Source of the DNA: Candidatus Micrarchaeota archaeon
GTDB lineage: Archaea > Micrarchaeota > Micrarchaeia > Anstonellales > Bilamarchaeaceae
Reading direction: 5' to 3'
NCBI GenBank assembly: GCA_018812715.1
Contig: JAHJCT010000017.1
Span: 204,019 to 268,018 of the forward strand
Length of the DNA: 64,000 bases
Shown: one piece after another, positions 1 through 36,569 of the stretch
Layout of the letters: every line of letters begins with the position of its first letter
How positions within the stretch are numbered: the first letter of the stretch is position 1
Notes under the pieces: model-generated
Databases searched by the model: none
Told to the model about the DNA's origin: nothing
The model's input: only the letters and a program-made list of their open reading frames with translations
Translations under genes and position numbers: made by a program

Positions 1-3000
1 CTGTTGATTCTTCTGGTTCATTTTCTCCTACCCAGCCTTCTAGTCTGCCATACATGTAATTGGCTGCAATCAACCATCCGGCATTTCTTGCCTGATCTTC
101 ATTCCAACCATAAAGATCGACGAACATTGTTGTCATATTCTGATACATTTCATCTGCTTCCTGCTCTACTACTCTGTATTCCCGAAGAAGATCGACTTCA
201 TTATATGCAACTGTTACTCCATACCCATATGTTTCATGTTCACTTGTTGGTACCTCATGCCTCCATCGTCCTCCTATTGTTGCCGGATAACCACCAATAA
301 GTCTTGCTTCCCATGAATGTGATAATGGATCTACGCGCATGCGCCTCCACATAAGTTCTCCGCTTCCATGTGCCCAATGAGTGTCCGTTACTCTTGCGGG
401 ATTTTCAGGATCTAATTCAACTGTCTGGGCTCCGCGATAGAATGCTGCATAAACATCTCTTTGTCTTCCACTTTGTAACAAGTTTGTCACTGCCATGCCA
501 GTTGCTTCTTCTATGTGTACAGGATCCATTGTACTTAGGTTTCTTACAAGCTCTCCAAAGAGAAGTGCTGAAACTGTATCTCCGTCATCTCCAGTTGGTA
601 TGGTAAATCCAACAGCAGCACCATCAAATCCAGCTGCTGCCGAATCTTCTGTGAGCATTTCACTTCCAACAAATCTTAATGAAGCAAGTATATTCTGCGT
701 ATTTACTCCCCCATAAAGGTAATTCATCAACTCTGCTTCTGTATTACGTCCAAATGCAAGCTGGTAAACATCTCCCTCTCCTGTTATGAAAAACAATCTG
801 CTTCTTATTTCTCCTTGTTCTTCCTGCAGTCTGTCTCTTGTTTGGTTTTCAATATCTTCCATTGTTATTCCATAACCTTCCAAAAGTGCATCTAATTCTT
901 CTTGTGCTGCTTCTCTGTCTTCTTCAGTTTCTCCATTTCTTGAAGTATCCAGAAGCGTATTTATATGCGAATAATTAACATCTTCAGGATTTTCGACCCC
1001 CATATCTGTTATATCATCTGATGTTAATCTCCATGTGGGAGGACCAAGAAGTTCTGGCACATAGGTACCTGCAACAAAGAAAAGCATATCTGTTCCGGAT
1101 TCTCTTGCTATCCTTTGGTATGACTCAAGCAGTCCATCTGTCCTCACAGCAGTTGTTACTTCCTCTCCTTCTACCATGCCTGTTGAACTTTCATAAGTAA
1201 ATTCTTCTCGTGCCCTGTGGATTCCTACTCCTTCTCCTCTTCTAAACGTATCAACAGGAACAAGTTGAAGTAAAGGAAGCGGGACTGGTCCAGTTAATGG
1301 ACTTGGAACACCTACTGCTTCTCCAGTATAATCGACCCTATGGCCACCAGTAACACTTTCTTCAGCTTCGGTTCTTTCTCCAGTATATTGCAGCTCCCAT
1401 CTTTCTCCGCCAGTGATGCCCCGTAATTGTCCTTCACCAAGAGCAGCACCACGTTCTGTAACACTTCCTTCTTCTCCTTCTACTGAGTAGTACATTCCTC
1501 CTTCGGCATTGCCACTTAACCAATAATCCTGATAATTCACTGGCATAGCTCCAAAGAGCTGGGTAATTCTTCTTATGATTGTAGATGAACCAAGTGCACC
1601 AATTCTATATCGTGCTGGCACGCCCATTCTGAACATTCTGTCGGTTGGAGGGCGTACTTGATCATACATGTTTGAGAATAATCCCATTGCACCTGAATCA
1701 AGTACATTCAATCCTAACATTGGTCCATTTGGCATTGTCACGCGTGGAAGCAAACTGAGTGGCTGTCCACTTTGTCCATAAAGTGTTGGCAATTGTTCTT
1801 CATCATATTGCCACCAGCCTGGTCTTTGTCTGTATAAAAATGGGCTAATGAAACCCTCATCAGTCATTGGCTCCGGAACCATACGCATTTCATCTTCTAA
1901 TCTATGATGATCAAATGTACTTGTAATTTCTGGAAGTTGTTCTCCAATTCGTCTAAATACTCCAAGGAAGTATTCTCTGTTTATTGCATTACTATACATC
2001 AGATATCTTTGACCTTCAGCATATCTTTGTGTAAACATTTGCCTGAATGCCGTCATTCCTGCAATCAGCGTCCGCTCATCCTGAGCAACTTCTAATAATG
2101 CTGGAAGAACATACAATAAATATGGGCCAACGAGATAAGGATCCCTGTGTGATATCACTAAAAGCGTGTTCATTAATTCTGTGGCTGCAGCTCTTTGGAA
2201 GGCTGATCCACTTCCAGAAATGCCCTCAAGAGCTATGCCCATATATACTGCATCTAATATTGTAAGTTCATTGCGTAATTGTTGAACATTCTCATCTGTA
2301 AATTCTCCTGTTTCAGGACTAAAACCAGTTTCATTTCTTTGTAATAGGTATTCAGTTTCCATACCTTCATAGAACGTTCTTCCGGCCCTTATCAATTGTC
2401 TTCCAGCATCTGTTTGGAAAAATCTGGCCAGTTCTTCTGGTGTAACCTCATCTTGTAAATAGTCTGGTATATCGATGTGATACTGCTGTCCAATGCGTGT
2501 AAGATTTTCTCTGAAAAGTTCAAGATTGAAATATTGATTGAAAAGATAGTTATTCTCTCCAAATTCTTGTCTGTATATGTTTACAGCCTGTTCAAAATTG
2601 GTTCCAAATTCATCACTGGGATTAGAGAATAGCAATGCATTTCTTAATCTTGCATATACGCCGGGCAATGTTCTTGCTACGTGGTCATAATTCTCCATAA
2701 AGTTTGCCCTTGTTGCCCCGGGACCCTCTTCAAATGCACTATAAAGTCTTTCCAGAGTTTCTTCAGGAATATTTTCAAGCTCACTTACTCTAGCGCTTGG
2801 TCTTTCCAAAAATCTCAATGCATTCATATTTTCATGTACAAGTGTTACAAGGTCCTCTCCATAAGCAACATTAAGCATCTGTATTCTTTCTTGGAATCTT
2901 TCATATTCTCTTGTTCCTTCTGCTGGTTCATTCAACCACACCGCATATATTGCTCCGAGTGCATAAAACAACTCTTCTCCTTGATTAAGATATGTTCTTG

Positions 3001-6000
3001 TCAAGACATCAATTGTTCTTGAATATGCAGATGAATATGCTGCCATAAGTTCTCCTCTTACATCTTCTGGCAGTTCCCTTACTTGATCTAGACCAACTTC
3101 TGATTCCAATAATGGTGCAAGATGTTCTCGTTGTGCTTCAACTGCAACTACGAACTCTTCTCCAAACAATTCAACCATTCTTGCCCTGTTTTCTTCTCCT
3201 TGTGGATTTACTAACGCACGGTGGCATCTGATTAAAATACTTGCAAAAAGAACATTTTCTCCTTGTCTTAAATCTTCTCTGGTTGTACCTGGGCTTTCTA
3301 AGAATTGTAAATGTGGCGCATGTGCTTCAACAAGCAATACGAATTCCTCTCCATAATTTCTGACCAAGTCTCTTCTGTTGCTTTCTTCCAAACCAGCATA
3401 TGTTCTTGTAAGTGCATTAAAGAATCCTCTTTCATTCATGCTTCCAACAAACTCGTATAGTTCAGGATCTGCCCCATGCAAAACACTTGCAACAATCTCT
3501 TCTACGACTGCCTGTTTTTCAGGTGTAAGACTTCCAAACCAATCTAACAATTCTCTTAACTCCTGACTGTCAACATCTACACTTACAGTTCCAATCGCTC
3601 CGGTTACCCTTGTTAAATCCCCACCAGTTTGCGCTACATGTATCAAGGAGTATGCCATTTCAACTGATCTGCGAAGTTCTTGCGGATTTAACATTGAGTC
3701 AGACAATGTTCTTTGCTCTTGCTCCAATCTCTCAAGTGATTCTGCATCGGATGTAAGTCTGGATCTTCTTACTATTTCTCTGTTTTGTATCTCCCACCTT
3801 CTTATACGCTCCAATAAAAGTGCCCTTGCTGGTTCAAGAACAGAATATTGCAATTGTCTTCTAATATCCCCAATGTCATTTGCAATAGTGTGGCTGCGTG
3901 ATTCTATTGCCCTACTCCCCTCGCCTTCGATAACTACTGTAGGTGCAGTTACCACTTCTCTTGATACCACTGGCCTTACAAATAATGTTCCAAGTGCATC
4001 TCTTGCATCGACAAGAGCAACTCCTCCTCTGTTAATCGATTGTCTTGCCCTAGCTAATGCTGCCACCAATTGTACTGGGCCATATGAGTAAATTCTTCCT
4101 GCCCTCAATTCTCTTGTAGTTTCATCAGTCCTTTCTTGCAAAGCTGTTTCTATGCTCTGGACATCCCCAGAGAGCCATTCTAATTCAGCGCGATTTGTTT
4201 CAACAAAACCAACAAGTTCTTCCCCATATCGACTAACAAGCCTGCTTCTGTCTGTGCTATTTTCGTAAATATCATGCAGTGCAATTGCAAATGTCCCATA
4301 GGTATATCCAATGTTTTGCTGTATTTGTGTAACAACAGCGTCTTCACTTCTTGTGCGCATACCTTCTTCTATTTGTTCTATTGGAAGTACTAACCAATGA
4401 AGATTTTCTATATTTGTTTCAACAAAATTAACAAACTCTTCCCCATATCTGCTAACTAGTTCTGCCCTTCTTTCCCTCATTGTTTGTACTTCACTATATG
4501 CTTGCGTGAGGACAGTGCCAGCATTATTACCATATCTGCTTATCAGAGCAGTTGCGAGCGGATCTGCTTCTTCTCCTCTGCGGGTTCTTGTTCTTCTTTC
4601 AAGTTCTCCTTGGGCATCAGCAGGACTCATGTCAGCAACCCATGAAAGCTGATCAAAATTTTCTTCAACTGTTTGCATTTCTTGAACAACGTTATGCCCT
4701 ATTGTTCCTTCTTGCACTAATCTTGCATTTCCTCTTATTCTCTCCTCACGCAAGGCACTATAAACTTCTATTAATGCAGCTCCCCTATTTTCAACATCTA
4801 TTTCCAGAAGTTGAAGTGCTAGTGTATCCTCAAACCCAACTCTTCTACTCAGTTCTCTTTCGGCTTGCGTTCCATCTCTCATTAACCAGTCAATTCTGCT
4901 ATTTTGTATTATTACATTGACAAGCTCAGGTCCATAGTCAGTTCTTAATCTGTCAAGATCTGGAGTTTCTCTTGCCAGTTCAGTATAAATATCTCTTATT
5001 GCAATCGGGAGAATGTTTCTGCCAAATCCTCTTATGATCGCTGCTAATGTTTCATCATTATTTAGTTCAGCCCTATATAATGCTTGGAATTCATTCCAGA
5101 ATGTCTCATTCTCCTCTATTGGTCTACCAAGGAATCTTCCATTGAGTATTCCTCTAAATTCATTGCTTGCCTGCTGACTTCCAGTTGCAATAACCTCATT
5201 CATTAATCTGATTGCATGTCCTGCTTGTCCTCTTGCAACAATGTCAAGTAATGGTCCAATTACCTGCTCGTTCATCTGCGTTATTTCTGTATCGCTAACA
5301 TCTCTCCTTAGTACATCGCGCATAAAGCGTTGAACATGCGCATCTACATCCTGTCTTGTACCAGTTATGGCAAGATTATATACTTCTCGAACTAGTGTTG
5401 CAAATTCGCCGGGCTCTATCCCACTCATAATTCTGTTATAATTCTGTGTTATACTTGCTAAACCAGATGCTGTATCATTGTATATTCTTTCACGAAACTG
5501 TTCTGTAAATGCATCTGTAAATTCATCACTTGTATTTGCATTCCATATTCTTACAAATTCATCTCTACTTGTTTGATCGCCAGTAAGTATGAAATTCCTA
5601 AGATGATCTATTGCTATTCTTGCCTGTTCTGCTGGCATGCTTGTTATAACTAATTGTGTAAGATTCTCTCCATATCGTGCAGAAAGTTCTTCTACTGCCG
5701 CTCTTTGCAATTCTTTTCTTACAGCATTATCAATGGTATATCCTTCTTCCATCAATGCTCTTACTCTTCCGACATCAGTATCTGCCCTTACTGCTGTGCT
5801 GGTTTCTACTCTTTCCCTTAATTCATCTACTGCATCATTATTAGGAATACTTCTTGCCAATCCAGCTCTTATATTATACAACGTATCGATGAAGTCAACC
5901 ATAACAACAGGTTCTAATGGCCTTCTATCCTCTCTATAAGCCTCTAAAAGAGCACTCACTTGCGGATCTTCTCTAACCCGTTCCATTTCTTCAGAAAAGT

Positions 6001-6349
6001 GAGCCATAAAAGTAGCATTTTCATTTAATGGAGCTCCTCTGAAATCTTCATTATATATTCTCCAAAACAAGTCTCGTTGTGATTCGTTTCCAGTGATTAC
6101 ATAATTCCTATAAGCGTCAGCAGCTTCAGTGCCTCTTTGCTGAAGATACGTGACGTCCTCTGCTTCAATACGTCCCTGTTCTGCCATAGCTTCATTACCC
6201 CCGAAGTAGTTTATATTGGTAACGGTACCTACGCCAATGCTTGCAGAGAGAAAATACTTCATCCATCTCGAACGCTTTACCCGATCAAGAATGCCTTCAC
6301 GGCGAATCGTCTCTCGCTGTTCGCTATAACAAAGTTTTGCTCCTGCCAT
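1..6349 (-). CDS. giant protein A, partial (>2116 aa; continues beyond window start), unknown function
   Basis: ATG at 6349 with an in-frame stop just upstream (6353-6355). The track shows no complete minus-strand ORF between 1 and 6421, consistent with one frame running off the edge. I hand-translated both ends: N-term MAGAKLCYSEQRETIRREGILDRVKRSRWMKYFLSASIGVGTVTNINYF, window end ...LYGWNEDQARNAGWLIAANYMYGRLEGWVGENEPEEST. At least 8 in-frame copies of an RYGEEFV-type motif. Confidence 0.8.
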   Translation of the reverse strand, partial: MAGAKLCYSEQRETIRREGILDRVKRSRWMKYFLSASIGVGTVTNINYFGGNEAMAEQGRIEAEDVTYLQQRGTEAADAYRNYVITGNESQRDLFWRIYNEDFRGAPLNENATFMAHFSEEMERVREDPQVSALLEAYREDRRPLEPVVMVDFIDTLYNIRAGLARSIPNNDAVDELRERVETSTAVRADTDVGRVRALMEEGYTIDNAVRKELQRAAVEELSARYGENLTQLVITSMPAEQARIAIDHLRNFILTGDQTSRDEFVRIWNANTSDEFTDAFTEQFRERIYNDTASGLASITQNYNRIMSGIEPGEFATLVREVYNLAITGTRQDVDAHVQRFMRDVLRRDVSDTEITQMNEQVIGPLLDIVARGQAGHAIRLMNEVIATGSQQASNEFRGILNGRFLGRPIEENETFWNEFQALYRAELNNDETLAAIIRGFGRNILPIAIRDIYTELARETPDLDRLRTDYGPELVNVIIQNSRIDWLMRDGTQAERELSRRVGFEDTLALQLLEIDVENRGAALIEVYSALREERIRGNARLVQEGTIGHNVVQEMQTVEENFDQLSWVADMSPADAQGELERRTRTRRGEEADPLATALISRYGNNAGTVLTQAYSEVQTMRERRAELVSRYGEEFVNFVETNIENLHWLVLPIEQIEEGMRTRSEDAVVTQIQQNIGYTYGTFAIALHDIYENSTDRSRLVSRYGEELVGFVETNRAELEWLSGDVQSIETALQERTDETTRELRAGRIYSYGPVQLVAALARARQSINRGGVALVDARDALGTLFVRPVVSREVVTAPTVVIEGEGSRAIESRSHTIANDIGDIRRQLQYSVLEPARALLLERIRRWEIQNREIVRRSRLTSDAESLERLEQEQRTLSDSMLNPQELRRSVEMAYSLIHVAQTGGDLTRVTGAIGTVSVDVDSQELRELLDWFGSLTPEKQAVVEEIVASVLHGADPELYEFVGSMNERGFFNALTRTYAGLEESNRRDLVRNYGEEFVLLVEAHAPHLQFLESPGTTREDLRQGENVLFASILIRCHRALVNPQGEENRARMVELFGEEFVVAVEAQREHLAPLLESEVGLDQVRELPEDVRGELMAAYSSAYSRTIDVLTRTYLNQGEELFYALGAIYAVWLNEPAEGTREYERFQERIQMLNVAYGEDLVTLVHENMNALRFLERPSARVSELENIPEETLERLYSAFEEGPGATRANFMENYDHVARTLPGVYARLRNALLFSNPSDEFGTNFEQAVNIYRQEFGENNYLFNQYFNLELFRENLTRIGQQYHIDIPDYLQDEVTPEELARFFQTDAGRQLIRAGRTFYEGMETEYLLQRNETGFSPETGEFTDENVQQLRNELTILDAVYMGIALEGISGSGSAFQRAAATELMNTLLVISHRDPYLVGPYLLYVLPALLEVAQDERTLIAGMTAFRQMFTQRYAEGQRYLMYSNAINREYFLGVFRRIGEQLPEITSTFDHHRLEDEMRMVPEPMTDEGFISPFLYRQRPGWWQYDEEQLPTLYGQSGQPLSLLPRVTMPNGPMLGLNVLDSGAMGLFSNMYDQVRPPTDRMFRMGVPARYRIGALGSSTIIRRITQLFGAMPVNYQDYWLSGNAEGGMYYSVEGEEGSVTERGAALGEGQLRGITGGERWELQYTGERTEAEESVTGGHRVDYTGEAVGVPSPLTGPVPLPLLQLVPVDTFRRGEGVGIHRAREEFTYESSTGMVEGEEVTTAVRTDGLLESYQRIARESGTDMLFFVAGTYVPELLGPPTWRLTSDDITDMGVENPEDVNYSHINTLLDTSRNGETEEDREAAQEELDALLEGYGITMEDIENQTRDRLQEEQGEIRSRLFFITGEGDVYQLAFGRNTEAELMNYLYGGVNTQNILASLRFVGSEMLTEDSAAAGFDGAAVGFTIPTGDDGDTVSALLFGELVRNLSTMDPVHIEEATGMAVTNLLQSGRQRDVYAAFYRGAQTVELDPENPARVTDTHWAHGSGELMWRRMRVDPLSHSWEARLIGGYPATIGGRWRHEVPTSEHETYGYGVTVAYNEVDLLREYRVVEQEADEMYQNMTTMFVDLYGWNEDQARNAGWLIAANYMYGRLEGWVGENEPEEST

Positions 6350-6421: not shown

Positions 6422-6688
6422 TTATCCTACCCCCAAAAATTTCTCATATTCTTTGTGGTCGCCAATAAAATAAAATTTCCGAGTTTTTATTCTTTCTTCT
6501 GAAACAAAAAGCACACGATATTGCCCGATCTCATCAACAAAGAATTCAAGACCATATTTTTCATGTCTAAAGCCATGCGTAGGGAATATTTTATATTTGT
6601 CTCTACGTTTCATAAATCTCTTTTGGATATCTGGCGGAAGCTTGTCAAAATAATTTTTCCAGGCTTCATCATATTCAAGGATGTACAT
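6422..6688 (-). CDS. RelE/ParE-family type II toxin-like protein
   Basis: 88 aa. The C-terminal pattern GQYRVLFVSEERIKTRKFYFIGDHKEY resembles the RelE/ParE core. It lies 9 nt downstream of a small partner ORF. Confidence 0.55.
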   Translation of the reverse strand: MYILEYDEAWKNYFDKLPPDIQKRFMKRRDKYKIFPTHGFRHEKYGLEFFVDEIGQYRVLFVSEERIKTRKFYFIGDHKEYEKFLGVG

Positions 6689-6697
6689 TTATCTCAT

Positions 6698-6922
6698 CTA
6701 TAAAAGATGTTGATATTTACCTGTAAATTCTTCATCGCCAATTGTTTTCCTTTTTCCTTTTTTTGCTTCTTCATGAAGTTCTTTAAGTACTTTTATTGCC
6801 TTTTTATCTTCAAGTGGCCTTACTCCCAACCTTTCATGAACTTCCTCTTCTAAGTAATTGATAATATCTCTGCATTTAAGTAGTTCTTCATACTCTTGCT
6901 TAGATATTTTGATATACTCCAT
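6698..6922 (-). CDS. putative antitoxin partner (74 aa, charged helical protein)
   Basis: Small ORF immediately upstream of the RelE-like gene on the same strand. No family recognised. Confidence 0.35.
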   Translation of the reverse strand: MEYIKISKQEYEELLKCRDIINYLEEEVHERLGVRPLEDKKAIKVLKELHEEAKKGKRKTIGDEEFTGKYQHLL

Positions 6923-6967: not shown

Positions 6968-8533
6968 TCATTCTATTTGCAATACTCTTCTGCGCCTTGT
7001 CCCTTCATCTTGTGGTTGCGCTTCTGGCACTGTGACGTTTGGTATGCTCCTTGCCCAATCCCCAACAGTGGAAGTATGGTGATTCATTCTCCACGTATAA
7101 ACAGAAATAGCAGAAAGTGTTCTCATATCTATTATTCCATTAACATGAAGATCTGTTCGTGGAGTTCCTAATATGCTGTTATATAATAAGTTAAGATCTC
7201 CATTGAGGCTGTCAAACCATTCTTCATCTGTTCTAGTTGCTGAGAAATTTATGAATGCCTGCACTGCCCTTGCTACTAATCTTCTATCCGTGTCTGATGT
7301 GGTACTTCTTAAGCGTGTCGCTTCTCTTCCAACAGTTGCATATTCATCATGACTTTGTACAAATGCTAAAAACACCTCATCTTCATGCAGGTAGTCATTG
7401 AATATTCTCATAAAAGCATCATATACATCAGTTCTCTCTAATTCAGTTAATGCACTTTCTAAGGAATCGTATCCTTCCGGAAGAGTGCGCATGAGTGTTA
7501 TTATTGCCTCTGGCCTTCCCTGTTGCACTCCTTGATATAATTCAGTACTAAGATTGGCCCAATGGCTTTCAGCAAATTGTTGCAGTGGGGTTTGTCGTAC
7601 TTCGACTGCTAATACTTCTGTAGCTTGCCATACATCAATACTATCCTGGCTTACACCAGTTCCTGTTTCCAAATACCATCTTCTCAAATATAATGCAGCG
7701 GCTGTAAGTGTATCTGCATCCATTGCTACAGTACGGTATGTTCTGAGACTTTGCTCATTTCCAATTCTTGTATGAATCTCTGGTAATTGATCTATCTCTT
7801 GATGATATCTTGCATAATTTTCACGTGCTGCTTCAAATTCAAGAAGATAATACCGGGTAAAAGCAAGTGCTGTGTTTACCAAATTAGCATCTGCATTTAT
7901 CGCAAGTGTTGGGGGTTCTCCTTGTTCTGTCATATATGCCTGAAGCGCAGCATAATTCCCTCCTTCTCTTCCAGCAACAGATGAAAGGAATAATCTGAAT
8001 CTTGGTATTTGATAAAATTCATTGAAAATTGTAACTGCTGCTCCTCTTCTGTTTTCATCTGTAGAAAGAAATTGCTGAATGCGATCTCTGTTAGTGTGCA
8101 AGGTATTTACAGCATTCAATGCATCTGTGCTTCCTCTTGCTCTTAATTGCATTTGAATCCAATCAGTTGAAATTGTTGGTATTGGAGGTTGTTCTTCTAC
8201 TGTTTCTTCTCTTCTTTCTCGTCTGGGCCTTCTCTCACGCCTTGGTGCAGGTTCTTCTACAGCTGGTTCTTCTACTACAGGCTGAGGGTGCAGTTCTCCA
8301 TAAATACGTGTAGCTATTGCCGCTACATTTAATCCATCAATAGCATCAAAATCCTGATCTGCACATCTTCCGCTTGCCCAGTTTTTAGCGCGTCTCAGTT
8401 CTCCTTGCAGATCTTCAACGCTCATTTGATCGTTTACAGTTACTCCTGTGTTATACCTTCTTGCCTCTCCTTCTCCACCTGTACAAACTATTACTATCGT
8501 ATTATTTCGAAGCGTTACTCTGGCATCAACCAT
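6968..8533 (-). CDS. 521-aa Arg/Glu-rich, Lys-depleted protein of unknown function (giant-gene cluster member)
   Basis: ATG at 8533 shares one base with the TAA of the upstream 2854-aa gene (TAATG). PRRERRPRRERRE linker. Only one Lys by my count. The segment EDEVFLAFVQSHDEY resembles the repeat motif of protein A. Confidence 0.8.
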   Translation of the reverse strand: MVDARVTLRNNTIVIVCTGGEGEARRYNTGVTVNDQMSVEDLQGELRRAKNWASGRCADQDFDAIDGLNVAAIATRIYGELHPQPVVEEPAVEEPAPRRERRPRRERREETVEEQPPIPTISTDWIQMQLRARGSTDALNAVNTLHTNRDRIQQFLSTDENRRGAAVTIFNEFYQIPRFRLFLSSVAGREGGNYAALQAYMTEQGEPPTLAINADANLVNTALAFTRYYLLEFEAARENYARYHQEIDQLPEIHTRIGNEQSLRTYRTVAMDADTLTAAALYLRRWYLETGTGVSQDSIDVWQATEVLAVEVRQTPLQQFAESHWANLSTELYQGVQQGRPEAIITLMRTLPEGYDSLESALTELERTDVYDAFMRIFNDYLHEDEVFLAFVQSHDEYATVGREATRLRSTTSDTDRRLVARAVQAFINFSATRTDEEWFDSLNGDLNLLYNSILGTPRTDLHVNGIIDMRTLSAISVYTWRMNHHTSTVGDWARSIPNVTVPEAQPQDEGTRRRRVLQIE

Positions 8534-11500
8534 TAACGTTCCCCTCTTCTGCTAACATACTGCATGATATGATTACGCAGGCCATTTCTTGCAGTCCTTC
8601 TATCAACTTCTACACTTAAACCTTCTCCTTCACCACTTACAGTAAGTCCATATCCTTCACGTAATTGCATGTCTCTATCTATGGTGCTAGTAAGTAATCT
8701 GTACATCTCTGCTTTGATATCTGCTCTTACAACATCTCTTGCTCTTTCTCTTGTTTCAGCATCTTCTGAATTTATTTCAGGACCATATGCATTTACCATT
8801 GCCTGTGCATCCTCTGTTAATGTTCCATCATCGTTTCTAGCTTCAATCATTCTGTCTATTGTTCCATCCAACAATGGTGTTAATGTACTTTCTTCATTTG
8901 CATAAAATCTCTGTGCTTCAGGTGATAAAGTTGCTGGAGGTGCATGAACTTCTTCAACATCAATCTGATCCTCTCTTCTGGGAGTCATTACTTCAAATCC
9001 AGGCCGTCTAACATATTGTGCTTCAAATTCTTCTCCAACCGGCTCCACTGTTTCTTCTCTTGTTACAGTTCCTCTGCTTCTTTCTCTTTCTTCCCTGGCT
9101 TGTTCTTCAGCAGGTGTTGCTCCATCCCACCAGCCGTTTGATCTGTACACTGTAGCCCTGCGGTCTAGATATTCGTATATTTCAGTGTATCTTCCAGGTC
9201 CTGGGACAGTGCTATGTTGCGAAGCATCTTCTATTATTTCTAAAACATGCCCGCGGATATTGTCTCTGTGATCTAGCAGCCATCTCACAAAACCTAATCT
9301 TTCTTCATCTGATCTTTCTGCAATAAATGTAACTAAGTGTGCATTCTCAGGATCAAACAATCTTGGTTCCATATATCCAAGAACTGCTGAACCTACAAAG
9401 CCGCGTTGTCTTGCTGCTTCAACTGCTTCTCCTGGAGTTTCACTTTCTAATATTAATGCTGCAAGCTCTTGCGGATTTCCATAGATTGCGTCTCCTCCAA
9501 TAACTCTATTCTCTTCTCCGTATCTAATATCCTCAATATTAAATGCATTGAATGCAAGCAAGGCTTCATTATTTTCTCTATATTGATTGAGCAGTTGTTC
9601 ATATGTATCTCTGAATCCAGGATCAAGTGATGCCCTGACATCAAGCAATCCAAGGAATGAATTTTGTCTTATTCCTGTAACTGTTCCATCTTCTTCTATT
9701 ACTTCAATGTAAAGATTCTGTGATCTCAAATGTGCTTCAAGTACCTGATAGATATCTCTTTCACTAGTAACCTGTTGCCTTAATTCTGTTATCCTTCCTT
9801 CGCTTGTAAGATCATTCATTATATTATCTAAATATACACTGGGTATGTGTCCTCCTTGTACTGCTTCCCATAAGTAGGCAAATACATCTGTGTTTGAAGT
9901 AAGGAAATCTACTCTTTGTCCGCCTTCTCTTGTATATCTTCCGCTTTCCGCCTCCCCTTCACTGATCAAACCAGTATCTACACAGAATGCATCTGCAACT
10001 GCATCCCTGAAATCTATCACAAGTCCTCTTTCTCTCCATTGTGGTATACGCAGATCAAATAAATCCGTAATATCTACTTCTTCTTTTCTTTCTTGCGAAA
10101 GAATTCCTTGCACATCATCAACAGTCAATCCCCATGGTTCAAGGATTGCTGCAAGCTCTGCCTCTCTTCTATCTTCTGCATCTCCTCTCCTCATATCACT
10201 CAATAGATCATTTATGTCATCTAATCTTCCGCCCATCTCTCTTCCGTCAGCAACTATCTCTCCAAGTCTTCTTGGTTCTATTAGTATGTCTGTTCTTTGA
10301 AGCAATTGATTAAGATCTTCTACATTTCCAGGTCTCCTATCTCTACCTCTTGGAAGAGCATTGGGCATGTGGAAGAAGAATCGCCTCCCTTCTTCAGTTG
10401 CAAGCCATTCCAAATCTTCATCACTGGCTCCGGCACAAAGATTTCCAAAGTCTCTTTCGCATAGCCTTCTTCCTTCTTCAACTGATCCGGCACTATTAAG
10501 TGAATTGTACCATGGCAATAGAACATTATCCCACGCGTAATTTCCAATCACATACCAGGCTATAGCCTGCGGTATTAAGTAAGGAGAATTCCTTAATCCT
10601 GCTCTTATCCTCCCTCCCGGAACTGCATTTCTTATGGAATTAACAAATCTTCTTGCTCCCCAATTAGTGAGTGGTTCCCAATTGTTGAGAAATCTAAGAA
10701 TTCTCCATCCAATATTTATTGCATCGTCCCTTAATGGTCTTGTATCTCTTGCAAATACATCTGCAGCAGTGCTTGCTTGGTCTAAAACTTGATTTATTCT
10801 TGGTCTTAATGCATTTATTGCTGAAAATTCTTGTGCAAATGCCGGGTCTTGACTAATATTTCTTACAAAACCTTCTAACGGAGTTCTCATTTCTCTTGGC
10901 ACAAACTGTGGTTCTGCTCCTTCTACAGCTCTGCCTTGTTCCAATACATTCAATATCTCGTCTACAGTTCTATTATTTTGCACTGCATCTCTGTAAATCT
11001 CTGCAGCTTCCCTTCCATATCTTTCCCTTACTGCTCTTTCAACTTCAGGACTTCTCAGAATCTCAGTTAACACATCATTAACATTTCCACCTTGGGAACT
11101 ACGCTCAAGAAGAGTACGCCTAATTACATTTGTTACTGGTTCATCAGCTATTGGAATTTCTCTTATTCTTCCTTCCACACTGTTTTGAACTCCAGCCAAT
11201 TCGCGAACAAGCATCTGAGGCGGAATTATGTCACTACCTTCTAATCTAGGCAATAATGATGCTCTTTCCAGCGGCGTGTATTCAATTCCAAGCAATTCCT
11301 GTGTTCTTAAAAGCGGTGCCAATTCACCCCGTTGTGCTTCAATTGCCCTTATCATCACTTCTACATCATTTGCAGAAAATCCTTCACGTGCTTGCACTGC
11401 CATATAATCTTCAGGACTTATTCCAGCATTTCTTGCCCCGCTTTCAATTGTTCTTCCTGTTCTATTTAATATATCTCTAAGTACTGGATCTGTTTCAGCT

Positions 11501-14500
11501 AATGTTTCAAGTTGTGCCCTTACATTTGGCCTTGAGTATATGCGTCTTAATAAATTCCAATAGCCACTAGTCTCCCCTCTTGCCGTTTGTGCTGTGTCGT
11601 ATAAAGATTTCATGATATCTGCTATTCTCTGAGGACTAGAATTCAACAGGTTTTCAAGTTCTACTGCCTCTGTTCTTGCTGTTTGTGCTTCTTGCTCTGC
11701 AACCCTTATCTCTTCTGGTCTTGCCCCTCCTTCTCTAAGTTCTTCTACTCTGACTTCAAGTTCAGTAGCTCTTGTGCGTGCCCTACTTATTTCTAATTGT
11801 GCCAATTCAGGATCTAATACCATATCCAAAGTATTTCTAACTCCTTCGCCTGTTGTACTAAGTACTTCTTCAGCTTCAGGAAGTTCGGCCCTTGCATTTC
11901 TCTCTACTCTATCGCTTCTCCAATTTTGCCAGCGCTCTCTTCCAAATCTATACATTCGTTCAAAGCGTCCCCATCTTACTTCTGGTATTGGCCGAACTGG
12001 TCCACCACCTCCACCCTGGCCCCCACCAACGGTTGTATCAACAGGACCTATTCCTCCTTGTTGCACTCCTGGTGGCCTTGCTCCTCCCTCTTCAGCCATT
12101 GCTCTTACTTCAGGCATCTGCCTTATCATCATTGGACCTTCGCCTTCAACAAGATGAGGCCTGCGTGCCATTTCACTTGCAACAACATCTTCTATGTAAT
12201 AGTTGTAATCATTCACTGCCATTGCAACAGCTTCAGGTTCAAACATTGCTTCTATTTGTGATCTTGCATTTTCCAAAGCACGTTGTGAAAATGGAGTTGC
12301 TTCTCCAGTTTCAAAGTAATGCCTTACACTTGGATTCCTGATAAGTCCATCTATTATTTCTGCAACTTCAGGATTTTCTGCCCTTATATTCTCTAATGTT
12401 TGTTGTGCTGCAGCTCTATGAACTACATTTTCTCTTGCTGTTGTTCCTTCAGGTGTTAGCAATCCCTCAAGCAGCCAATCCAATCTTCCTGGCTGCAATG
12501 TTCCTGTGCTTTCAACTTCTGTTACTGGTCTTCCGCCTCTTGGCCCTGGCGTTGGAGGTTCTGGGCCTCTGAATATCATATCAATTACACTTGTCATATT
12601 TCCTCGTGCAAGTGGTGTCATTTCTCCTGTTACTAGGGCCTCTGGAACATGCATAAAGCTTGTATTTCCAATGCTGCCCGTCTCCATAAACTGCATTATT
12701 CTTCCTTGTACTTCCTCAGGCAGTGTTCTCAACCGTGCCTGTGCACCATCCCTTACAGTCGGGTCTTCACTTCTCAACTCTCTCATGAATTCAAACATTT
12801 CTTCTGGGGTTCGAAGTCTTTGTGCTTCTCTAACTGAAGGAATTTCATTAGGTTCTATTTCAATTGGAACCTCTCGCGGTTCCGGTGCCCTTATCTCTTC
12901 AGCTACAAGCTCAGTTTCTGTTCTTGCTTCTGTTGTTCCTCTTACTGGTCTGGCTCTCATAGCTTGCCATCCACGTGACCCTGCCATATGTGCCCATGGG
13001 AAAGCGGCCATTGCAGTTAGGAAAATTCCCTCCCGCATATTCCCTTCTGAAAAGGCATCAACTGCATGATATCCCATATATCCTGAGAAACCAACTCCAA
13101 TTCCAATGTTTGTATAATTAAGGGCTCTTACCACTTGTGTCATTCTAGTAGCATATGCAGTTCCTTGTGCAAACTGTGCTTCTGTACGTAAAACGCCTGC
13201 AAGTCCTCCGATACCCATAGTTGCTATTATCCCACCAAACATCAACCACGATGTCCAACTTGCTTCTCCTTGTACCCGGTATTCTGTAACTATCTGATCA
13301 AATGCCATAGTTGCAAAGAGCGACCCACCAAAAAGTTGTCCTCCAGGTACGAGACACGCTACAACCCCAACAGCAGTTAGTCCAACTGTAGTCCAAAATT
13401 GGTGGTCTGCTACTCGTTCCTGCATTCGATCTATGATTGCATTAGCATCATCAAATCTTCCCATGCCAACAAGGGCATATACATTGCCTTGATCGACAGC
13501 ATACTCTGCAAACATCTGGCTTCCTGAATCTGCAGGAATTGCGAATATTGATGCTTCAACAATTCTTGCACCATTCAAATCCAACTGCATTCTCTCTTGT
13601 GATCCAGACCCTCCTCTACCAAAGAGAATATAATGCATCGAATCTGTTTGCATTTCTCTGTAAGCATCCCAATAAGATCTATCTGGTTCGCTTCTCATAA
13701 ATTCTGCAAAATCTTCTGGGAAAAATATTGCCTCTCCTAATCGTTCTGCACCTTCAAGGAAGTTTTCAATACCTGTAGCAGTTAAATTCATCGCACTTCT
13801 TCCTTCATATGATGCCATAGCAGTTATCCTATGATCTATAGCAGCTTCATATGCTTCTTCAGCTTCCTGGAACCTTCCCTCCAAAATAAGATTTTGAGCT
13901 CTTTGCAAATCAGTATTACAATCTCTTAAATTATCTTCTGCTAAACTAAATCTATCTCCACCCCCAATTCTTATCATTCTTAGATATTCATCGTTTACTT
14001 CTATCTGCTGTCCTATCTGTGAATAAGCCATGGCTGCCCTGCTTTCTCCTTGCACTAATTCGAGCAGATAACTCATCACAGTTCCGCCTCTTAGCCCCTC
14101 TCCATATATTGGCAGATCATCTGTAGTATATTCTATCCCATCCATCTGTGTAAGCAGAGCATCTACTTCGGTAGAAAGATATATCACTTGCCTTAATCTT
14201 CCCATCTCAAGGTCTGATACTGCTCCAAATGTCTCTGGATGCTGTTCAATATAATCTGCCATTAAAGAAAGGCCATTGCTTGTTGTAGTAAATGCGCCTA
14301 CATCATGGCCATAATCCCATGCTGTTTGCCAAGCTCTTTCTCCTGTTGTTCCTCCTCCGCACATGTTTATGACATAAGCTCGGAATGCTTCAGTAAGTGC
14401 ATCATTTCCTTGCCTAAGTATTACTTCAGCATCTACTACTGTACTTCGTCTATGCACTCTTGTAGCAATTAATGACAATCGGTTCCAATATGTTTCACTT

Positions 14501-17097
14501 GCTTGTTCATATTCTCTTAAATTTCCACTAAAAGCCGCTTCTCTAAGTTCTTCAAGATCACTTCTTAAGCTATGCAATGGATAATCTCTGGCTATTGTTA
14601 AATCGCGCTCCCCATGACTTCTTTCATAACCTCTTATCTGTTCAGCAGTAACATATGCTGGAAATGTTCCATCCTCATTTCTTTCACCGAGTGGAATTTG
14701 TCCGGCTTCTACACCTTCTGCTATCGGCTCTCTTCCCCAGTAAATACCTGTTAATCTGTTATAATCAGCAATAAGCATTTCTGTTTGTACGATTCTTCTT
14801 GTTCCTCTATCAAACTGTTGTGCAGCTGCATAATGCTCTTCATCTGTTCCTGCATGCATTTCCATTTCTATTGCTTCAAGCATTATCCTTCTGCCTCTTC
14901 TGTATCCATATGGCACTTCTTCAGTTCCTTCTCGAATCATGCGTTCATGAGTAAATAGTTCATATCTCCAGCCTTCCTCTCTTCCTCCTTCAGCTGCACC
15001 ATAATAATCTCTTATATATTGCAGCAATAGATTTGCTCCCCGATAATCTCCAGCTTCGACTCTTTCTCTTACAATTCCTAATGCTTCATTTATTGTTGTT
15101 CTCCCAACTCCTCTTCTTTGTGCAAATGTCTCCAATCTGTTTGCTTCTGCTTCTATGTAAACTATCTGCGCTAAGTTGAAGCTTTCCATGAAGGCACCAT
15201 CATCACCTGGTTCGCCTTGTGCCATAGCCTGCAATTGTGTCTCCATTCCACTTAGGTGTATTGCATTTTCATCCGTAATTCTGGTGACTCTTCCATTGCT
15301 TACTACTCCAAGCCTTTGCACAGAATCAACATACATTGCAAGAAGTGTAAGTACTCTTGCTGCTTCTTGTGCATTCCCTTGTCTTGCAAGTTCTTCTGCA
15401 CGTTCAAGTGTTTGATTTACTATCCCTATCTGGAAAGTCATTCTTCTTGAACTCCAGTTTTCAATCAGTTCTCTGAATTGATCTGTTTCTCCTCTAACCT
15501 GGTGGTAAATCATTCCTATATTGAACTGCTCACTGGCATCTTCTCCTGCCATTTCACTTTGAAGTGCTTGTTCTATTGTTTCGCGTCCTTCCCAATCCCC
15601 CCAGCGATGCCCTTCATTTCTGTCATAATAAAATGAAATCATGTAAAGTAATCTTCTTGCTCCTTCGAAATCACCAAGCTTGAATCTTTCATCTGCAATG
15701 GCTGCTGCATTTCTGATAAGTTCTCTTCTCTCTTGCCCTCTTCTTCCTGTAATTGCTTGGAACCCTTCAATATCTACAAGCATGTGTGCCATGTCCATTT
15801 CAGTTGAATACTGTGCAAGCATTGATGAAGTAGGGCTTCTTCCTTCAATTATTATATTATATATTGTCTGATAACTCGGCAGATAATCTACTGCATGCCT
15901 ATCTAATTGTCTTGCAGACCGTTCAAGCAATCCTAAAGAAATGGCAAGTGCTGCAAGATTTCTATCTCCTCTTTGCAGTGCATCAAGTGCCTGTTGACCA
16001 TACCATTCCGGACTTTCTTCTGTTACTCTTCCTGTTCCACGTAAACTAGTAGCAATCATAGTCAGGTTTGCATCTCTTTCTTCTTCGCTTAATGGCATCT
16101 CTCTTCCAATTGTCATGAAATAGCTGGTTGTAATTCTTTCAAATTCCAACTGACCAATTATTTGTCCTTGTTCAAGTCTTCTGATTATTTCATCTAGTTC
16201 ATGCCTGAGATTTTCCATTTGCTGTCTCATCTGTTCATTTGTCTGTTGTTCTATTGCAAGTGCTATCTCATCTCTCCATTGGCTGAAGACTGTTGTGTTT
16301 ATCTCAGTCCATTGGTCCTTTATTGTTCCTATATTAGCTTCAAAAGACCAAAGCGATTGTCTATCTTCATGTTCCTGTTCACTAGTATACCCAATCCTTT
16401 GCCTCCCCTGGTTTCCTCTCTCCACTATAAAACCAAAGAGTGCATTTCTTTCCATTTCTACAGCTGAATTGTCGATATTGTAAATAGGAATATTCTCAAC
16501 GTACAATCTCCCTGCTTTTAGTACTGCCTCTGCTCTGCCGTGATTTGTTGTTGCAATATCTAATACAGAAGCTTCCAGGCTATCAAAAATAGTTTCAAGT
16601 GCATCTTCTGATTCCACGCCAGGAATCTGAATATTTTCAGGCATGCCCCCCGTTAGCATATGTAATTCTATATCAAATACATCTCCGACTGTTCTGAGCA
16701 TTGCCCTTGATCTTGTTATCATGTGGAATGATGCAGCAATGTTTCCTTCTCCACCAGTTGTTCTTGCATCATTTAATATCTGCTGAACTAAATCGAGTTC
16801 ATCCGTATACCTTTCTCCAAGTATTGGCAGTGCAGTTACTCTTAATCTCACTTGTTCCAATGTTTCTTCTGTTCTTTCTACTTCTGAATTAATGTATTCA
16901 ATAGTTGCATCATCAGGCCTGACAGTTAAGGTTCGCGCATGATCCTGGAGTGCACTAATCTCTCCAAGCACTTCATCCAATCCCTGTTCTAATTCTCTTC
17001 TTTGTTCATCCATTGCTTCTATTCTTGTTGGAATGATTGCAATTGGTAATCGTGTAATCTCCTCCTCTTCAGGTCTTTCTATTGTTGTTCCTCCCAT
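8533..17097 (-). CDS. giant protein B (2854 aa), unknown function, with a central multi-pass hydrophobic block and a conserved C-terminal domain
   Basis: Uninterrupted 8.5-kb ORF with ATG at 17097 and a strong SD. Helical TPR-like repeats (GDYRGANLLLQYIRDYY, GDFEGARRLLYMISFYY, GRFQEAEEAYEAAIDH). About 5 hydrophobic helices around aa 1235-1400. Trp-rich segment AIAWYVIGNYAWDNVLLPWY. C-terminal YRLLTS...YGLTVSGEGE domain shared with the 1463-aa protein. Confidence 0.9.
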   Translation of the reverse strand: MGGTTIERPEEEEITRLPIAIIPTRIEAMDEQRRELEQGLDEVLGEISALQDHARTLTVRPDDATIEYINSEVERTEETLEQVRLRVTALPILGERYTDELDLVQQILNDARTTGGEGNIAASFHMITRSRAMLRTVGDVFDIELHMLTGGMPENIQIPGVESEDALETIFDSLEASVLDIATTNHGRAEAVLKAGRLYVENIPIYNIDNSAVEMERNALFGFIVERGNQGRQRIGYTSEQEHEDRQSLWSFEANIGTIKDQWTEINTTVFSQWRDEIALAIEQQTNEQMRQQMENLRHELDEIIRRLEQGQIIGQLEFERITTSYFMTIGREMPLSEEERDANLTMIATSLRGTGRVTEESPEWYGQQALDALQRGDRNLAALAISLGLLERSARQLDRHAVDYLPSYQTIYNIIIEGRSPTSSMLAQYSTEMDMAHMLVDIEGFQAITGRRGQERRELIRNAAAIADERFKLGDFEGARRLLYMISFYYDRNEGHRWGDWEGRETIEQALQSEMAGEDASEQFNIGMIYHQVRGETDQFRELIENWSSRRMTFQIGIVNQTLERAEELARQGNAQEAARVLTLLAMYVDSVQRLGVVSNGRVTRITDENAIHLSGMETQLQAMAQGEPGDDGAFMESFNLAQIVYIEAEANRLETFAQRRGVGRTTINEALGIVRERVEAGDYRGANLLLQYIRDYYGAAEGGREEGWRYELFTHERMIREGTEEVPYGYRRGRRIMLEAIEMEMHAGTDEEHYAAAQQFDRGTRRIVQTEMLIADYNRLTGIYWGREPIAEGVEAGQIPLGERNEDGTFPAYVTAEQIRGYERSHGERDLTIARDYPLHSLRSDLEELREAAFSGNLREYEQASETYWNRLSLIATRVHRRSTVVDAEVILRQGNDALTEAFRAYVINMCGGGTTGERAWQTAWDYGHDVGAFTTTSNGLSLMADYIEQHPETFGAVSDLEMGRLRQVIYLSTEVDALLTQMDGIEYTTDDLPIYGEGLRGGTVMSYLLELVQGESRAAMAYSQIGQQIEVNDEYLRMIRIGGGDRFSLAEDNLRDCNTDLQRAQNLILEGRFQEAEEAYEAAIDHRITAMASYEGRSAMNLTATGIENFLEGAERLGEAIFFPEDFAEFMRSEPDRSYWDAYREMQTDSMHYILFGRGGSGSQERMQLDLNGARIVEASIFAIPADSGSQMFAEYAVDQGNVYALVGMGRFDDANAIIDRMQERVADHQFWTTVGLTAVGVVACLVPGGQLFGGSLFATMAFDQIVTEYRVQGEASWTSWLMFGGIIATMGIGGLAGVLRTEAQFAQGTAYATRMTQVVRALNYTNIGIGVGFSGYMGYHAVDAFSEGNMREGIFLTAMAAFPWAHMAGSRGWQAMRARPVRGTTEARTETELVAEEIRAPEPREVPIEIEPNEIPSVREAQRLRTPEEMFEFMRELRSEDPTVRDGAQARLRTLPEEVQGRIMQFMETGSIGNTSFMHVPEALVTGEMTPLARGNMTSVIDMIFRGPEPPTPGPRGGRPVTEVESTGTLQPGRLDWLLEGLLTPEGTTARENVVHRAAAQQTLENIRAENPEVAEIIDGLIRNPSVRHYFETGEATPFSQRALENARSQIEAMFEPEAVAMAVNDYNYYIEDVVASEMARRPHLVEGEGPMMIRQMPEVRAMAEEGGARPPGVQQGGIGPVDTTVGGGQGGGGGPVRPIPEVRWGRFERMYRFGRERWQNWRSDRVERNARAELPEAEEVLSTTGEGVRNTLDMVLDPELAQLEISRARTRATELEVRVEELREGGARPEEIRVAEQEAQTARTEAVELENLLNSSPQRIADIMKSLYDTAQTARGETSGYWNLLRRIYSRPNVRAQLETLAETDPVLRDILNRTGRTIESGARNAGISPEDYMAVQAREGFSANDVEVMIRAIEAQRGELAPLLRTQELLGIEYTPLERASLLPRLEGSDIIPPQMLVRELAGVQNSVEGRIREIPIADEPVTNVIRRTLLERSSQGGNVNDVLTEILRSPEVERAVRERYGREAAEIYRDAVQNNRTVDEILNVLEQGRAVEGAEPQFVPREMRTPLEGFVRNISQDPAFAQEFSAINALRPRINQVLDQASTAADVFARDTRPLRDDAINIGWRILRFLNNWEPLTNWGARRFVNSIRNAVPGGRIRAGLRNSPYLIPQAIAWYVIGNYAWDNVLLPWYNSLNSAGSVEEGRRLCERDFGNLCAGASDEDLEWLATEEGRRFFFHMPNALPRGRDRRPGNVEDLNQLLQRTDILIEPRRLGEIVADGREMGGRLDDINDLLSDMRRGDAEDRREAELAAILEPWGLTVDDVQGILSQERKEEVDITDLFDLRIPQWRERGLVIDFRDAVADAFCVDTGLISEGEAESGRYTREGGQRVDFLTSNTDVFAYLWEAVQGGHIPSVYLDNIMNDLTSEGRITELRQQVTSERDIYQVLEAHLRSQNLYIEVIEEDGTVTGIRQNSFLGLLDVRASLDPGFRDTYEQLLNQYRENNEALLAFNAFNIEDIRYGEENRVIGGDAIYGNPQELAALILESETPGEAVEAARQRGFVGSAVLGYMEPRLFDPENAHLVTFIAERSDEERLGFVRWLLDHRDNIRGHVLEIIEDASQHSTVPGPGRYTEIYEYLDRRATVYRSNGWWDGATPAEEQAREERERSRGTVTREETVEPVGEEFEAQYVRRPGFEVMTPRREDQIDVEEVHAPPATLSPEAQRFYANEESTLTPLLDGTIDRMIEARNDDGTLTEDAQAMVNAYGPEINSEDAETRERARDVVRADIKAEMYRLLTSTIDRDMQLREGYGLTVSGEGEGLSVEVDRRTARNGLRNHIMQYVSRRGER

Positions 17098-17101
17098 TTT
17101 T

Positions 17102-17108
17102 TCACCTC
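17102..17108 (-). promoter_or_regulatory. Shine-Dalgarno-like GAGGTGA upstream of the giant protein B start
   Basis: The minus strand reads GAGGTGAAAAAATG. The element overlaps the TGA of the preceding small ORF. Confidence 0.5.
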
Positions 17109-17421
17109 AAGTATATTCCTTACACATAAGTACAAAATCCTGCAGCCTCTCAAGTCTCGCCTTTTCATTATCTTTTCCTTTCACTGCTTTTTTCTGCCAT
17201 TCAACCAGCTCATCATGGAATTTTCTTATTTTTTCTATCTGTGGCTCCATACTCCTGCTTTTTACCTTTGAAGCCTCCCATTTTGCAAGGAATTTTTCTA
17301 TTACAGTAATAGTATGATTTACCCTGTTTATTGTATTTTTTTCAACAGAAGCAGCATCAGTCTTAACAGGTATTTTCTTCTTGGAGATTTTTTTCTTTTT
17401 TGAAGATTTTTTCTTAGCCAT
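17107..17421 (-). CDS. small Lys-rich protein (104 aa from the ATG), unknown function
   Basis: ATG at 17421 is preceded by AGGTG (the track start at 17430 is GTG). MAKKKSSKKKKISKKKIPVK N-terminus. Composition is typical of the host genome, unlike its giant neighbours. Confidence 0.5.
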   Translation of the reverse strand: MAKKKSSKKKKISKKKIPVKTDAASVEKNTINRVNHTITVIEKFLAKWEASKVKSRSMEPQIEKIRKFHDELVEWQKKAVKGKDNEKARLERLQDFVLMCKEYT

Positions 17422-21990: not shown

Positions 21991-22413
21991 TTATAATCTT
22001 TCCTTAACTAGCTCAACGAATTTCTTTGCATTTTCTAATGCCTTTTCTGCTTCTTCTTTTCCTACACTATCTGATTCTCCATATACGACGTCATGCCGTC
22101 TTACTCGATACCGATTAAATGTATTTGCTAATCCGATCGACTCTGCTGGAAAGACTGCTGCACAGAATTGAACTACCGCGAGATGATGGGCCTCTGATAC
22201 TGGCATATATCCTTTATACGTCATCAAAGCCCTACCAGCAGATAGCATAGCATTATACGCTATTGCCAGTGCCCAATCATAATTCTTATTTTTCAAATTA
22301 TCTGATGCTACCCTCAGGTCTCTTTCTGCCATCAATAGTATCTCTTTAGCTTTTTCTCTATCGCTTTCCACTTTTCTTACTAAATCCTTCTTTAACAATT
22401 CTGCTAAATTCAT
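21991..22413 (-). CDS. HEPN domain protein (toxin half of a HEPN/MNT pair)
   Basis: All-helical 141 aa from the ATG at 22413 (the track start at 22428 is TTG). Rx4-6H-like motif RYRVRRH. Located downstream of, and overlapping, a nucleotidyltransferase gene. Confidence 0.6.
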   Translation of the reverse strand: MNLAELLKKDLVRKVESDREKAKEILLMAERDLRVASDNLKNKNYDWALAIAYNAMLSAGRALMTYKGYMPVSEAHHLAVVQFCAAVFPAESIGLANTFNRYRVRRHDVVYGESDSVGKEEAEKALENAKKFVELVKERL

Positions 22414-36548: not shown

Positions 36549-36569
36549 ATTATTATAACGAAATTCTCC

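Follow-up and report, generated by a model that had tools for sequence, protein, structure and literature searches.

We found that two giant proteins encoded in one gene cluster of a Candidatus Micrarchaeota archaeon end in the same domain. The cluster lies in a 64,000-nucleotide stretch of contig JAHJCT010000017.1 (assembly GCA_018812715.1, positions 204,019 to 268,018 of the forward strand), here called the window, to which the coordinates below refer. The two proteins, B (2,854 amino acids (aa); 8533..17097, minus strand) and C (1,463 aa; 17512..21903, minus), share at their C termini a module of about 115-130 residues that appears, from its sequence and predicted structure, to be a new and independently folding domain, with no match to a described family or solved fold in the libraries searched. 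As far as labelled records go, the domain is restricted to Micrarchaeota. We propose, tentatively and rating the proposal somewhat below an even chance, that it is a shared protein–protein docking module, which would pair B with C or bind both to a common partner. As a kind, a terminal module that giant envelope proteins have in common has known analogues; the family and the apparatus are new.

The shared C-terminal domain and its family

In B the domain spans residues 2724-2854 (8536..8928, minus) and comprises an N-terminal motif, LSPEAQRFY, a helical bundle, a β-hairpin, a C-terminal helix and a short basic tail, RRGER. The paralogous copy in C covers residues 1352-1463 (17515..17850, minus). 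BLASTP aligned the two over 131 columns with 40% identity and a 19-residue indel (77 bits, E=2e-17), far above chance, and MAFFT gave an identity of 46%. A first-pass annotation, made from the letters of the window, had called the copies near-identical, which was too strong; its description of a discrete conserved module ending two otherwise unrelated giants was confirmed, and the peptides and coordinates that it quoted for them were right. When a hidden Markov model (HMM) of the two sequences was run against a six-frame translation of the window, no third copy was found beyond B and C.

The domain contains the β-hairpin peptide YGLTVSGEGE, which is invariant between B (residues 2816-2825; 8623..8652, minus) and C (residues 1425-1434; 17602..17631, minus) and coincides with the two strands of the predicted structure (E97-100 and E107-110). 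Here the DNA itself is identical at 24 of 25 nucleotides, where chance would give no such match. This identity, noted in the first-pass annotation, was real, and its second coordinate had to be moved by one base: the segments, which encode the invariant YGLTVSGE, lie at 8628-8652 and 17607-17631 (not 17608-17632).

The AlphaFold2 model of the domain, built from a 35-sequence alignment, was confident (predicted local distance difference test (pLDDT) 95.6, predicted template modelling score (pTM) 0.88) and contained seven helical segments and one β-hairpin. It opens with a short helix (LSxEAxxFY) and goes on to a helical bundle containing the helix AI[KR]AE[IV]YR[LF]LTS (IKAEMYRLLTS in B, containing K2795; 8686..8718, minus), the hairpin ([YW]G[IL]TVSGxG...V.V), and a long C-terminal helix with a short arginine-rich tail, which in different carriers reads RRGER, RRRQ or RSRSKR. 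The 40 residues upstream are of low complexity and rich in A, P, Q, S, T and G, with a hydrophobic fraction of 0.17 versus 0.27 in the domain, as expected for what may be a flexible tether; in B this linker (8929..9009, minus) carries the B-type motif RRPGFE. A hydropathy scan of the last 130 residues of B and C detected no hydrophobic segment.

None of the 35 domain copies matched Pfam at E<=0.01, and NCBIfam gave nothing for B and C. The best hit of the domain profile among PDB sequences had E=0.39, and the best Foldseek hit of the model in the PDB had E=0.83. The whole proteins A (a third giant of the cluster), B and C were likewise without a match in Pfam, NCBIfam and PDB. With these three libraries negative, the earlier statement that the domain is no named one was borne out. 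Two functional assignments were rejected. A catalytic role is unlikely: there is no invariant polar residue, candidate Ser, His and Asp positions vary, and conservation reaches 90% or more only at F10 and G101. An EF-hand or dockerin reading of the conserved D-x3-DG loop failed on a pattern misfit when the alignment was read, together with the negative Pfam search.

The family was defined by an exhaustive hmmsearch of 1.84 billion protein cluster representatives, which returned 39 proteins at E<=1e-3 (22 at E<=1e-10). Two of these, P0038 and P0039, were rejected as repeat-driven false positives, and 37 credible carriers were counted, comprising B (123 bits), C (117 bits) and 35 further representative proteins. 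The family thus extends beyond the two genes of the window, and the first-pass annotation's own counter-scenario, a similarity confined to these two through recent gene conversion, does not describe a domain with so many carriers in an operon conserved across Micrarchaeota. The family profile is marked by the motifs LSxEAxxFY, AI[KR]AE[IV]YR[LF]LTS and [YW]G[IL]TVSGxG. Organism labels on carriers, or on orthologues of A, were only Candidatus Micrarchaeota, Micrarchaeia and Bilamarchaeum, a member of Micrarchaeia.

Carriers fell into three groups: B-type giants of 2,355-3,258 aa, in the main ~2,800 aa with several membrane helices; C-type proteins of about 1,000-1,770 aa, in the main ~1,300 aa with one membrane helix; and short fragments at contig edges. 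Nearly all carriers have the domain at the very C terminus, in proteins of 1,100-3,260 aa. Of 24 long carriers, 22 have no more than 13 residues behind it (median 4), and the remaining two have tails of 29 and 43 residues there. P0003 has one internal and one terminal copy, and P0004, a complete 314-aa gene directly downstream of FtsY, has two copies in tandem. By Rosetta-stone logic, the tandem and the double copy suggest that two copies may work together.

A word-indexed protein search returned nothing with the two-copy profile and one fragment (P0033) with the 35-copy profile; it missed B and C themselves, even though C is on record, and was uninformative for the family. When GTDB genomes were scanned with patterns drawn from the two copies, the sole match, in Frigoribacterium, was rejected as a chance exact LSPEAQRFY with no similarity beyond it. 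A degenerate DNA pattern for YGLTVSGEGE gave three matches in JGI metagenome contigs, which were discarded as chance (they differed at the serine position and had unrelated surroundings); it gave 0 matches in viral contigs, and viral scans with protein patterns of the domain found nothing. No description of this gene cluster or domain was found in the literature.

Outside the domain, B and C appear by sequence to have no significant homology. In hhalign profile–profile comparisons, the 700-800 residues upstream of the domain gave a probability below 2% between B-type and C-type proteins, so the giants are otherwise diverged, as had been described; weak collinear hints were seen upstream (B 2324-2411 versus C 1095-1193, BLAST E=0.035/0.001). 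A short similarity was also observed between A 1797-1845 and B 2295-2340 (E=3e-4). In a neighbour-joining tree of the domains, B-type and C-type copies formed mostly separate clades and did not group by genome, suggesting that the split is old, predating the sampled diversity, and that both copies have been retained. Both protein types carry the domain in all five genomes in which both could be read, those of the window and of contigs L006, L007, L008 and L009.

Among orthologues, identity to the window protein was 32-38% in the domain versus 30-44% in the rest of the giants. With conservation at this similar level, the domain stands out only as the sole segment common to both types. B–C domain identity was 0.363 within genomes versus 0.330 across genomes, and the observed mean was reached in 6 of 120 permutations (n=5), at most a weak hint of co-evolution. 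The pair from the window was the most similar of all B–C comparisons (0.46 versus a mean of 0.29).

A conserved cluster of giants and its lysine content

On the minus strand of the window, the order of genes is FtsY, a HEPN/nucleotidyltransferase pair, C, a 104-aa basic protein, B, a 521-aa protein, two small open reading frames (ORFs) and A. Six contigs (those of the window, L006, L007, L008, L009 and P0034) have in common the order FtsY, C-type, a basic protein of ~93-113 aa, B-type, a protein of 521-536 aa or 805-822 aa, and A-type; the five further contigs, where DNA was at hand, range in G+C from 42% to 62%. There were two exceptions to this order: the small basic gene of L007 is located after B, and on the P0034 contig A lies a few kb off on the opposite strand. 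In addition, a fragment, the P0019 contig, runs from the small gene (an uncertain reading) through B and a 536-aa protein to A. The cluster adjoins a block of ribosomal-protein, prefoldin and FtsY genes and extends over 1-24365 of the window. No transporter, ATPase or sortase gene was found within the conserved cluster in the six contigs.

Protein A (1..6346, minus) is cut by the window edge. A homologue search retrieved its full length, 2,824 aa, as P0040, which ends in ...WWFGLYGRIEW. The domain profile found no match in full-length A and 13 orthologues (best score 12.7 bits), and the suggestion that A might end in the same domain was not upheld. We observed that in the A-type giants (P0040, P0041-P0052) an N-terminal basic tail is accompanied by a weakly hydrophobic segment, that the motif YGEEFV..VE....L.WL is repeated internally, and that the β-rich C-terminal region closes in a conserved aromatic motif, ...RPEYL..W...GWW.M.[YH]G.I.W.

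The basic protein between C and B (~104 aa; 17107..17421, minus) was present in every cluster examined except the P0019 fragment, where it is uncertain. It is 23% lysine, starts with MAKKK... and is the best-conserved protein of the cluster, with the motifs PVKTD..SVE, FLAKW and RLQDFV, and it is lysine-rich even where the giants are lysine-free. The start of the nearly lysine-free 521-aa protein (6968..8533, minus) and the stop codon of B overlap. Elsewhere the same operon position is held by ~806-822-aa proteins, whose N-terminal part is homologous to the 521-aa protein. These longer proteins contain a GDSL-lipase domain in the L007 (27667-28478), L008 (17068-19488) and P0034 contigs; for the ~806-aa positional counterpart in L009, a GDSL-lipase match is not on record. 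A lipid-active enzyme in the cluster is of note for symbionts thought to depend on a host. This lipase domain of the longer counterparts apart, the five cluster proteins (C, the ~105-aa protein, B, the 521/806-aa protein and A) had no match in Pfam, NCBIfam or PDB.

The cluster is further marked by its composition. A has 5 lysines in 2,824 aa, B has 6 in 2,854 and the 521-aa protein has 1, all with ~10% arginine, whereas neighbouring housekeeping proteins are 8-24% lysine. The near-total purge also covers the C-terminal half of C (17512-19371, minus) and recurs in most orthologues, at G+C contents from 39% to 62%; the lineages that retain lysine are those of P0007/P0024, P0034, P0042 and P0048. 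Only two lysines, K2338 and K2795 in B numbering, are recurrently kept in the lysine-free B-types. In the A-types, the few lysines that survive are concentrated in the N-terminal tail, ahead of the hydrophobic segment (residues 5, 25 and 31 in P0040; 6 of 8 lysines in P0041). Two other causes of this composition were considered and rejected. Avoidance of lysine codons at the messenger RNA level, for example under a lysine-codon-specific mRNA interferase, does not fit a purge that spares parts of the same ORF, lysines being retained in the N-terminal tail of A and in the N-terminal half of C. Adaptation to high salt was likewise discarded as the source of an acidic, lysine-poor composition, since the housekeeping proteins are near neutral and contain much lysine.

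A, B and the 521-aa protein have long lysine-free regions in an otherwise normal proteome, which is how lysine deserts are recognized (PMC10665810). The likeness lies in these long lysine-purged stretches and does not apply to the domain. Lysine deserts have been described for evasion of ubiquitin- or Pup-dependent degradation, whereas here archaeal proteins of ~2,800 aa, probably exported, are purged whole. No lysine-directed tagging or degradation system was found within the window.

The layout of C bears on where the domain would reside. Its lysine-rich N-terminal ~820 aa are followed by one predicted membrane helix, a lysine-poor C-terminal part of ~600 aa with conserved cysteines, and the domain. 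The single conserved hydrophobic segment (residues 824-844, LWKGALKAYLIGSFGVAWFTS; 19372..19434, minus) is preceded by basic residues. In C and six orthologues, lysines number 10-26 per 200 residues before the hydrophobic segment, 0-6 in the bin that contains it and 0-3 beyond. A similar contrast was seen in two acidic β-helix (NosD-like) surface proteins of the window, of 1,021 aa (30797-33862, plus) and 1,189 aa (56459-60028, minus): both start with a signal peptide and end in a membrane anchor followed by a KK-rich cytoplasmic tail, and the exposed part of each is ~1% K and ~1% R. From the lone segment, the lysine switch, the conserved cysteines, the N-terminal lysines of the A-types and the likeness to surface proteins, we infer that C probably has its C-terminal half, with the domain, outside the cytoplasm. 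We also noted four conserved cysteines at residues 987-1080 of C (18664-18945) and in its orthologues, arranged as C-x8-10-C ... CC in an outer half otherwise poor in cysteine, and a C-x8-C pair at residues 2213-2221 of B; these cysteines may form disulfides or a metal site.

For B, a hydropathy scan predicted a cluster of 4-5 membrane helices at residues 1235-1373 (12979..13395, minus) and a further hydrophobic segment at residues 2173-2189. No signal peptide was found in B, and the same kind of scan bore out the earlier statement that an N-terminal signal is absent from both B and C.

Docking and its alternatives

How might the domain act? In the docking proposal, a flexible low-complexity linker would tether it to the far end of the B-type and C-type giants of one operon. 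There, on what would be the extracytoplasmic side, it would pair the distal ends of B and C or join both to a common partner, and such docking would help to assemble an envelope apparatus of several giants. The extracytoplasmic placement is itself a prediction from sequence. We favour an interaction module over a tag because the domain is folded and sits on a linker, has no hydrophobic anchor, occurs in tandem and internal copies, is absent from A and the 521/806-aa proteins, and has no transporter or sortase gene in its cluster. The first-pass annotation had offered both: a sorting, secretion or anchoring tag fits poorly for these reasons, as it does with a folded unit of 115-130 residues and tails of up to 43 residues, and the docking or oligomerization that it named as the alternative is the better, if still provisional, reading.

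Several observations weigh against docking. For B, the positive-inside rule and the lysine pattern point to no single consistent topology. Lysine depletion is no general marker of location, since lysines persist in the outer half of C in L008 and L009, where B, A and the 806-aa protein are purged. The same-genome signal is borderline (n=5, about 0.05), and the pair P0007/P0024 is among the least similar. Finally, the sequence signature would look no different if the domain bound a non-protein ligand.

The main rival explanation, which we consider rather unlikely, is an adhesive or anchoring tip: the domain would bind a non-self ligand, such as the cell's own surface layer (S-layer) or envelope polymer or a component of the host surface, and so fix the distal ends of both giants to envelope or host. 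A domain at the end of a flexible linker and probably outside the cell would suit this role, as would the GDSL-lipase protein in the L007, L008 and P0034 clusters. Cultivated Micrarchaeota are host-attached and S-layer-bearing (PMC11329633; bioRxiv 10.1101/2021.04.28.441871), and electron cryotomography (cryo-ET) of a co-culture of strain ARM-1 has shown that the symbiont envelope contains a 21-nm barrel-like docking platform, its composition unknown (PMC11329633), which also favours a tip. However, fast evolution would be expected of a tip that binds a host, and the domain diverges no faster than the rest of the giants (32-38% versus 30-44% identity); nor did the Pfam and PDB searches reveal any likeness to known carbohydrate-binding or S-layer-binding modules. 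An export or sorting signal read by a dedicated machine, as in type IX or type I secretion systems (T9SS, T1SS), is in our view improbable. It would explain the exit from the cell of giants that have no N-terminal signal peptide, and it would account for the nearly constant extreme C-terminal position (median 4 residues after the domain); B, being lysine-free along its full length like the exported part of A, does raise the question of its export route. Yet A and the 521/806-aa proteins are equally lysine-free and do not have the domain, the membrane helix of C can act as a signal anchor, and internal copies, tandem copies and tails of 29-43 residues are hard to reconcile with a terminal signal. 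The conserved cluster of the six contigs contains no transporter, ATPase or sortase gene, and the domain has no hydrophobic segment and matched no known sorting-signal model.

A cytoplasmic end-domain with a regulatory or nucleic-acid-binding role, one that would bind RNA, DNA or the 104-aa protein through its basic helix and arginine-rich tail, is very improbable, although the tails RRGER, RRRQ and RSRSKR, the cytoplasm-like, lysine-rich composition of the 104-aa neighbour and the lack of one consistent picture of B topology speak for it. The extracytoplasmic position predicted from C would not be compatible with it. Least probable by far is that the similarity is a functionless by-product of recent local duplication or gene conversion. 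The window pair is indeed the most similar, and within the hairpin stretch 8 of 10 codons are identical (P=0.019, for a stretch picked post hoc). Over the whole domain, however, 27 of the 51 positions with identical residues use the same codon, where codon usage predicts 24.6, which is no excess of shared synonymous codons; there are 35 further representative proteins, both types occur in five genomes, and B-type and C-type domains form mostly separate clades. We attribute the identity of 24 of 25 nucleotides to an invariant peptide and codon bias, not to recent gene conversion, and regard conversion as essentially excluded, save for a possible short, old tract in the hairpin.

Several known systems invite comparison. 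Functionally closest to the docking proposal are the dockerin–cohesin pairs of cellulosomes and the docking domains of non-ribosomal peptide and polyketide synthases (NRPS/PKS), small linker-borne terminal modules that assemble very large separate proteins. They differ from the present domain in that there is no relation in sequence or fold, no cohesin-like partner was identified and both partners here carry the same type of domain; the 35 copies were negative in Pfam, including Dockerin (PF00404) and SLH (PF00395). The T9SS C-terminal domain (CTD, Por_Secre_tail) is likewise a folded domain, of ~80-100 residues, that ends many large unrelated surface proteins of one phylum (Bacteroidota). The CTD, however, is a β-sandwich, accompanies an N-terminal Sec signal and is read and cleaved by the T9SS, whereas the present domain is mainly helical and archaeal with no such machinery nearby; no Pfam match was found in the 35 copies and no NCBIfam match for B and C, the fold is not a β-sandwich and there is no N-terminal hydrophobic segment. 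PGF-CTERM/archaeosortase and LPXTG signals share the C-terminal position on surface proteins, but each of them is a short signal in three parts, among them a membrane helix and a basic tail, in contrast to a soluble folded domain without a hydrophobic helix; the hydropathy scan of the last 130 residues of B and C was negative and NCBIfam gave no match. As for T1SS/RTX proteins, the terminus here is confidently folded in the model, Pfam found no RTX or HemolysinCabind repeats, and ABC-transporter and membrane-fusion genes are not in the conserved cluster of the six contigs.

Giant genes in series also have parallels. The SPEARE proteins of Nanohaloarchaea are reportedly encoded by comparable consecutive genes for giant surface proteins in small genomes. 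In Apilactobacillus kunkeei, Giant1-5 are consecutive genes of >2,500 codons that fill a few per cent of the reduced genome of a symbiont, with a presumed role in cell–cell contact (PMC12863079). In both of these clusters adhesin, β-solenoid or enzyme domains can be recognized, whereas A, B and C have none, and B and C contain internal membrane helices.

Genomic surroundings and significance

The window is archaeal in its gene content: the giants are surrounded by genes for S19e, L39e, L31e, eIF-6, LX, prefoldin, FtsY, fibrillarin, CDC48, Elp3 and HerA. A Logan assembly of run SRR2540949, which is cited in a paper about deep terrestrial subsurface biofilms, contains a contig that matches the window with 1 mismatch in 24,392 nucleotides. 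Between FtsY (23007-24365, minus) and C lies the HEPN and MNT-type nucleotidyltransferase gene pair (21991-22428 and 22358-22966, minus); a pair of this kind is also found near the cluster on the P0034 contig. The two small lysine-rich ORFs between the 521-aa gene and A, of 88 and 74 aa (6422-6688 and 6698-6922, minus), look like a toxin–antitoxin pair in size and arrangement; they had no match in Pfam and are missing at the same position in the other cluster contigs. We also detected a signal recognition particle (SRP) RNA (36296-36550, minus) that scored 65.2 bits with the bacterial large SRP model RF01854 (gathering score 60), which outscored the archaeal model despite the archaeal genome. 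GC skew and AT skew were strongly negative across most of the window; values near zero or slightly positive occurred only in two regions of plus-strand genes, at ~30-36 kb and 52-56 kb.

Micrarchaeota live as obligate symbionts and have genomes of ~1 Mb; which molecules bring about their contact with the host is, to our knowledge, unknown. Together A, B and C account for ~7,100 codons (21 kb), which would be roughly 2% of a genome of this size. On a broader view, which we think unlikely as a whole, the domain may be the coupling element of a five-gene apparatus of ~25 kb (C, the ~105-aa protein, B, the 521-aa or lipase-fused protein, and A) that is found across Micrarchaeota, whose exported components are purged of lysine and which would build a host-contact structure such as the 21-nm platform of ARM-1; the one lysine kept in the domain of lysine-free B-types, that of the IKAE motif, would be functionally required. 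The link of the cluster to that platform is speculation. The lysine purge itself is a compositional signal that could be used for finding exported or host-exposed proteins in these genomes. As one module that would link two giants, with a confident model and clear motifs, the domain could be used for expression and crystallization, as a bait, and for raising antibodies for cryo-ET in co-cultures. With such a handle, the question of what holds a micrarchaeon to its host would become testable.

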